From Escherichia coli (lineage in GTDB: Bacteria; Pseudomonadota; Gammaproteobacteria; Enterobacterales; Enterobacteriaceae): 64,000 nucleotides of DNA. This document shows, piece after piece, positions 56,078-56,174 of this stretch. The stretch's first letter is position 1. Each line of letters starts with the position of its first letter. The stretch lies in assembly GCF_051903065.1 (NCBI RefSeq), contig NZ_CP178438.1. One strand, 5' to 3'. Both the position numbers and the translations under genes were made by a program. Under the pieces are notes generated by a model. That model searched no databases and was not told the origin of the DNA. It saw only the letters and a program-made list of their open reading frames with translations.

Positions 56078-56097
56078 GATTTAGCAAAACGTGGCAT
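56078..56097. promoter_or_regulatory. marbox (MarA/SoxS/Rob binding site) of the marRAB promoter
   Basis: GATTTAGCAAAACGTGGCAT just upstream of the -35 TTGACT. Confidence 0.7.
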
Positions 56098-56122
56098 CGG
56101 TCAATTCATTCATTTGACTTAT

Positions 56123-56174
56123 ACTTGCCTGGGCAATATTATCCCCTGCAACTAATTACTTGCCAGGGCAACTA
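56123..56174. promoter_or_regulatory. marO MarR operator sites I and II
   Basis: Palindromes TTGCCtgGGCAA (56125-56136) and TTGCCagGGCAA (56160-56171), between the -35 and the GTG start of marR. Confidence 0.75.

Follow-up and report, generated by a model that had tools for sequence, protein, structure and literature searches.

The 64-kb stretch of DNA that was analysed (hereafter the window) carries a canonical Escherichia coli marRAB operon with a wild-type control region, repressible as well as inducible, a reading to which we assign a probability of about 0.93. The marRAB system is already known, and what the window presents is its wild-type state. The segment from the marbox to MarR site II (positions 56078-56174) is 100% identical to that of strain K-12 MG1655, the repressor MarR is full length, and its only two amino acid substitutions relative to K-12, G103S and Y137H, define the allele carried by the majority of complete E. 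coli genomes.

Architecture of the marRAB locus and its control region

[quoted passage not shown] All four products scored above the NCBIfam equivalog cut-offs (score versus cut-off: MarR 320.1/240, MarA 294.3/202, MarB 138.9/87, and MarC 376.6/162), and MarR, a winged-helix repressor of the MarR family, matched the crystallised protein 3VOE_A over residues 1-144 with an E-value of 3.6e-92. The features of the locus are as follows:

55300-55965, minus strand: marC, the divergent neighbour sharing the intergenic region; protein identical to that of K-12
55966-56176: marC-marR intergenic region, 211 bp
56062-56076, plus strand: presumed Fis-type accessory site GACCAAAACTTGAAC, a 15-bp G...C core recognised by pattern, containing the 56064 A>C difference
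56078-56097, minus strand: marbox GATTTAGCAAAACGTGGCAT, backward relative to the promoter, identical to K-12; the site for MarA, SoxS and Rob
56114-56119, plus strand: -35 hexamer TTGACT of the marRAB promoter (promoter scan, K-12 identity)
56125-56136, plus strand: core palindrome of MarR site I, TTGCCTGGGCAA, between -35 and -10, identical to K-12
56137-56142, plus strand: -10 hexamer TATTAT of the marRAB promoter (promoter scan)
56160-56171, plus strand: core palindrome of MarR site II, TTGCCAGGGCAA, overlapping the marR ribosome-binding site AGGG, identical to K-12
56177-56611, plus strand: marR, repressor, GTG start, 144 aa, full length; NCBIfam NF008565 equivalog, 320.1 bits
56632-57015, plus strand: marA, activator, 127 aa; NCBIfam NF008564, 294.3 bits
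57047-57265, plus strand: marB, small periplasmic modulator, 72 aa; NCBIfam NF007508, 138.9 bits, and Pfam MarB

The promoter scan revealed a sigma-70 promoter, TTGACT-17-TATTAT, at 56114-56142 with 10 of 12 consensus matches, and its 17-nt spacer is filled by MarR site I. Judged from the position of the -10 hexamer only, marRAB transcription would start at about 56149-56150. A promoter-like match on the minus strand at 56166-56138 was discarded as being within chance (2 found versus 2.3 expected). The second palindrome covers the AGGG of marR, which lies 8 nt before the GTG start codon, so that the operator comprises one palindrome in the promoter and another over the ribosome-binding site. 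Both are parts of a 15-nt direct repeat, TACTTGCC(T/A)GGGCAA, with a spacing of 35 bp. Matches to TTGCCNGGGCAA occur only at these two sites in the whole 64-kb window, compared with 0.03 expected, and none of 100 shuffled sequences contained at least two of them. The arrangement agrees with the published one, in which MarR site I lies between -35 and -10 and site II near the translation start (PMC3920692).

The marbox is a 20-bp element upstream of the -35 hexamer, and its reverse complement has a single mismatch to the degenerate mar/sox/rob consensus AYNGCACNNWNNRYYAAAY. This degenerate pattern is found in the 64-kb window at the level expected by chance (2 found versus 1.56 expected); therefore, the marbox was identified by its exact identity to K-12 and not by motif statistics. 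The second match, at 33170-33188, was accordingly set aside as a chance occurrence.

In an alignment with K-12, the marbox, the promoter and both MarR sites showed no difference, and marO of the window had no deletion, duplication or palindrome change. The initial annotation had placed a marbox and two MarR palindromes at these very positions and had described the operator as free of mutation and MarR as full length. All of this was borne out: the marR reading frame runs from GTG at 56177 to the stop at 56611 with neither indels nor internal stop codons, encoding 144 aa.

The 97-bp segment 56078-56174 is exactly conserved in 3803 of 5418 complete E. coli records. Variants sampled among the other records included single-nucleotide changes at 56090 (a non-specified marbox position), 56102, 56111 and 56146 together with 56148, as well as one 1-bp deletion, and none of the sampled substitutions or 1-bp-deletion variants touched the MarR palindromes. 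About 30% of the records belong to a class with one mismatch, which could not be treated as a single variant, since 56102 C>T accounts for only 310 genomes; according to the sampling, the rest of this class includes 56111 C>T, 56090 C>T and others.

Strain UPEC957C (NZ_CM177858.1, L005, 2380-2590) has a 35-bp deletion between the TACTTGCC repeats, resulting in the loss of site I and the -10 hexamer. This operator lesion was readily detected by the same comparison, and damage of this kind in the window would thus have become apparent. The marC gene of UPEC957C is also truncated, and the strain is a candidate natural mar promoter/operator mutant.

Other rearrangements of the region were observed in the E. 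coli collection. In Combat13F7 and TUM2820 (L002 and L012), unrelated DNA is present upstream of about position 56047, and marC is replaced by a RelE/ParE toxin gene; this lineage keeps the marbox, the promoter and the MarR sites, with 56102 C>T common to 310 genomes. The mar region was also matched in five places on plasmid-labelled records and in up to three places in one genome, which could represent duplicated or mis-assigned mar loci.

The MarR variant with Ser103 and His137

Compared with K-12, the marR gene of the window has nine nucleotide differences in the alignment, two of which change the protein, G103S and Y137H. The initial annotation had proposed aligning marO and marR with K-12, and its expectation of an unaltered control region was fully justified for the marO elements, but the two MarR substitutions had not been noted. 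These are also the only differences in end-to-end comparisons with crystallised MarR (3VOE, 3VOD, 5H3R and 1JGS; E <= 1e-88).

The frequency of the allele was estimated by searching for 41-mers centred on the two codons. The Ser103-codon 41-mer was found in 4204 and the His137-codon 41-mer in 4218 of 5426 complete genomes, i.e., in about 78%; such counts approximate the allele frequency, since megablast requires a 28-base seed, which a 41-mer mismatched at its centre cannot provide. Ser103/His137 is thus the commonest natural MarR allele in E. coli, while K-12 carries a minority one. The protein (WP_000843419.1) is annotated in O157:H7 TR01, M10, A30, F2_81 and other unrelated strains. Both positions vary among the MarR orthologues of E. 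coli, Salmonella and Enterobacter, with S, G or D at position 103 and H or Y at position 137.

Published opinions on these substitutions are divided. Two genome reports call them resistance mutations and hold them responsible for increased marRAB or acrAB expression (PMC11504656, PMC8976530), including an eightfold higher level of acrA (PMC8976530). On this basis one could propose that G103S/Y137H cause a partial loss of repressor function, leading to low-level constitutive expression of marA and overexpression of acrAB. However, neither report used isogenic constructs, and the effects were seen in clinical strains of non-isogenic background, which differ in many further respects. Moreover, carriers have been found at levofloxacin MICs of 0.016-0.25 ug/mL in a survey that saw "no significant association" between the substitutions and resistance of any level (PMC4317672), and the susceptible control strain ATCC 25922 has both substitutions (PMC10782992). 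PMC11753663 states, citing Oethinger 1998, that they have no effect on repressor activity. Inactivation of MarR costs about 20% in fitness (PMC7729382), a burden that an allele carried by most genomes would hardly be expected to have. A study of isogenic marR alleles (PMC5890708) does not mention the two substitutions. Taken together, a partial loss of MarR function appears very improbable, and the preferred reading remains that of an intact repressor.

Database pipelines flag both substitutions, as can be seen from papers in which CARD-RGI was used. In one such CARD-RGI-based report they "do not lead to overexpression" (PMC12565876). The literature search yielded no link between Y137H and the name of a CARD model.

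Given the frequency of about 78%, the susceptible carriers, the variability of both positions among orthologues, and the literature on unaffected repression, we conclude that G103S and Y137H are neutral lineage markers. The initial annotation had named substitutions known to derepress the operon as the finding that would speak against it; G103S/Y137H nominally touch upon this point, but a pair of substitutions present in most genomes and in susceptible isolates does not qualify as derepressing. Its statement that constitutive multiple-antibiotic resistance is not predicted from the mar locus therefore stands, in view of the intact operator, the full-length MarR and the majority allele reported as neutral.

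The biological weight of this result is small, since the operon is known from textbooks and is present here in its wild-type form. Nevertheless, it calls for caution, because variant calling with K-12 as the reference labels the majority MarR allele as a mutant. As Ser103/His137 is the majority allele and K-12 the outlier, the mar locus should not be counted as a contributor in resistance prediction for the source strain.

Variation around the operator and downstream recombination

Over the whole 211-bp intergenic region, only two single nucleotides differ from K-12; these substitutions, 56047 G>A and 56064 A>C, lie on the upstream side of the marbox. At these two positions the window has the majority alleles and K-12 the minority ones: a 41-mer with both alleles of the window was matched in 3704 of 5426 genomes, in 3078 of them exactly, and C at 56064 is present in about 68% of genomes. 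The 56047 G>A substitution is located inside a marbox-like repeat at 56039-56052 (repeat family D4).

The 56064 A>C substitution falls within the presumed Fis-type site at 56062-56076, and the substituted position is presumably a non-specified one of the Fis consensus. A review locates Fis binding in the part of marO that precedes the marbox and gives the extra stimulation as about twofold (PMC7355843).

In the spacer between marR and marA, a run of seven A residues is found at 56614-56620 (plus strand), while K-12 has six. The run lies directly upstream of the marA Shine-Dalgarno sequence, whose distance to the ATG is unchanged relative to K-12. An exact 97-mer containing the A7 run was detected in 854 of 5416 records, indicating a minority natural variant.

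In the alignment of positions 55960-57270 with MG1655, the marA gene has three nucleotide differences, all of them synonymous, while marB has 14, resulting in seven amino acid substitutions. The pN/pS ratio of marB relative to K-12 is 0.42, against 0-0.09 for marR, marA and marC, which points to relaxed constraint. The MarB protein is one residue (A71S) away from that of strain F2_81 and three residues away from that of O157:H7. At the DNA level the exact marB allele is present in only 4 of about 5400 records, and 421 records have alleles with 95-99% identity.

These variants allow one to consider a locus that is still repressible but whose set-point is shifted by the A7 run, the 56064 A>C substitution and the MarB allele, with a modest difference in basal or induced MarA and no constitutive resistance. 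[quoted passage not shown] However, the measured effect of MarB was "marginal" (PMC5630622), the spacing between the marA Shine-Dalgarno sequence and the start codon is that of K-12, and each of the three variants is a common natural polymorphism, the MarB protein being close to those of F2_81 and O157:H7. The non-specified character that we presume for position 56064 also argues against such a shift. We therefore regard a shifted set-point as unlikely, and a constitutive phenotype caused by the same variants as much less likely still. The reading of a wild-type control region is retained.

Downstream of the operon, eamA and ydeE occupy positions 57296-59576 of the window, and the eamA allele is deeply divergent. 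Compared with K-12, F2_81 and M10, its pS is about 0.28-0.30 and its pN/pS about 0.06-0.08. Only 3 of 5417 records have the eamA-ydeE haplotype at an identity of 99% or higher; in 5337 records the identity is 90-95%. In strain A30, the stretch from marC to the end of marB is identical to that of the window, but eamA differs by 8%; therefore, a recombination breakpoint is located between marB and eamA, at about 57266-57296. The closest relatives of the window are strains 23CRST027, 23CRST031 and ECNB21-M121.

A broader hypothesis could be built on the whole haplotype, which combines MarR with Ser103/His137, the A7 leader, the MarB allele that is rare at the DNA level and the breakpoint after marB into the divergent eamA. 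Under this hypothesis, the haplotype would give a heritably different MarA set-point compared with K-12, and alleles would be exchanged particularly often at marB and the 3' end of the operon, thereby tuning intrinsic drug tolerance between E. coli lineages. We consider it a speculative proposal with a small chance of being correct.

Apart from the mar locus, two features were recorded in the window:

42019-43816: IS200/IS605-type element between lsrG and tam
59792-60005, minus strand: STnc560 Hfq-binding sRNA in the mgtS-dgcZ neighbourhood, Rfam 281.9 bits

The IS200/IS605-type element comprises tnpA (Y1_Tnp, a 188-aa ORF on the minus strand) and tnpB (OrfB_IS605 with a Cas12f1-like TNB domain, 402 aa). 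Strain A30 has an element at the same place, with its tnpA annotated as a pseudogene. The STnc560 sRNA is the only match in the window at the Rfam gathering score, and no tRNA genes were found in the 64-kb window.

Predicted regulation and comparison with known mar loci

The cis elements are identical to those of K-12, and MarR and MarA are full length; on these grounds, we infer that the mar locus would be repressed in the absence of an inducer and would confer no constitutive Mar phenotype. The genotype is not that of a derepressed strain, since marR has no indel or stop codon, the operator is that of K-12, and the only MarR substitutions are those of the majority allele. The conclusion is limited to the mar locus; lon, acrR, soxR and rob lie outside the window.

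The mechanism outlined here is established knowledge of the marRAB system, applied to an intact locus. A MarR dimer bound to site I, between the -35 and -10 hexamers, would block RNA polymerase, while a second dimer would occupy site II over the marR ribosome-binding site, and the occupation of both sites would keep basal transcription of marR-marA-marB low. Salicylate, or oxidation mediated by copper, would release MarR. The promoter could then be activated by MarA, or by SoxS or Rob, which are paralogues of MarA, bound at the marbox upstream of -35, helped by Fis just upstream, and the raised level of MarA would switch on acrAB-tolC and micF. MarR with Ser103 and His137 may be expected to bind marO and to be released by salicylate or copper in the same manner.

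Mutants with a constitutive Mar phenotype have the same locus and the same elements, altered by frameshift or missense mutations in marR or by deletion or duplication of site I in marO; a mutant with a 20-bp duplication in the operator is listed in PMC3920692. In contrast to them, the window is free of such lesions. In K-12 MG1655 (b1530-b1532), the genes are arranged in the same order, namely, ydeA, marC (divergent), marR, marA, marB, eamA (convergent) and ydeE, and the MarA, MarC and YdeA proteins are identical to those of the window. The differences from K-12 consist of G103S and Y137H in MarR, the substitutions at 56047 and 56064, the additional A in the marR-marA spacer and the seven substitutions in MarB, while in marO itself the marbox, the -35 hexamer, site I, the -10 hexamer and site II are the same base for base.
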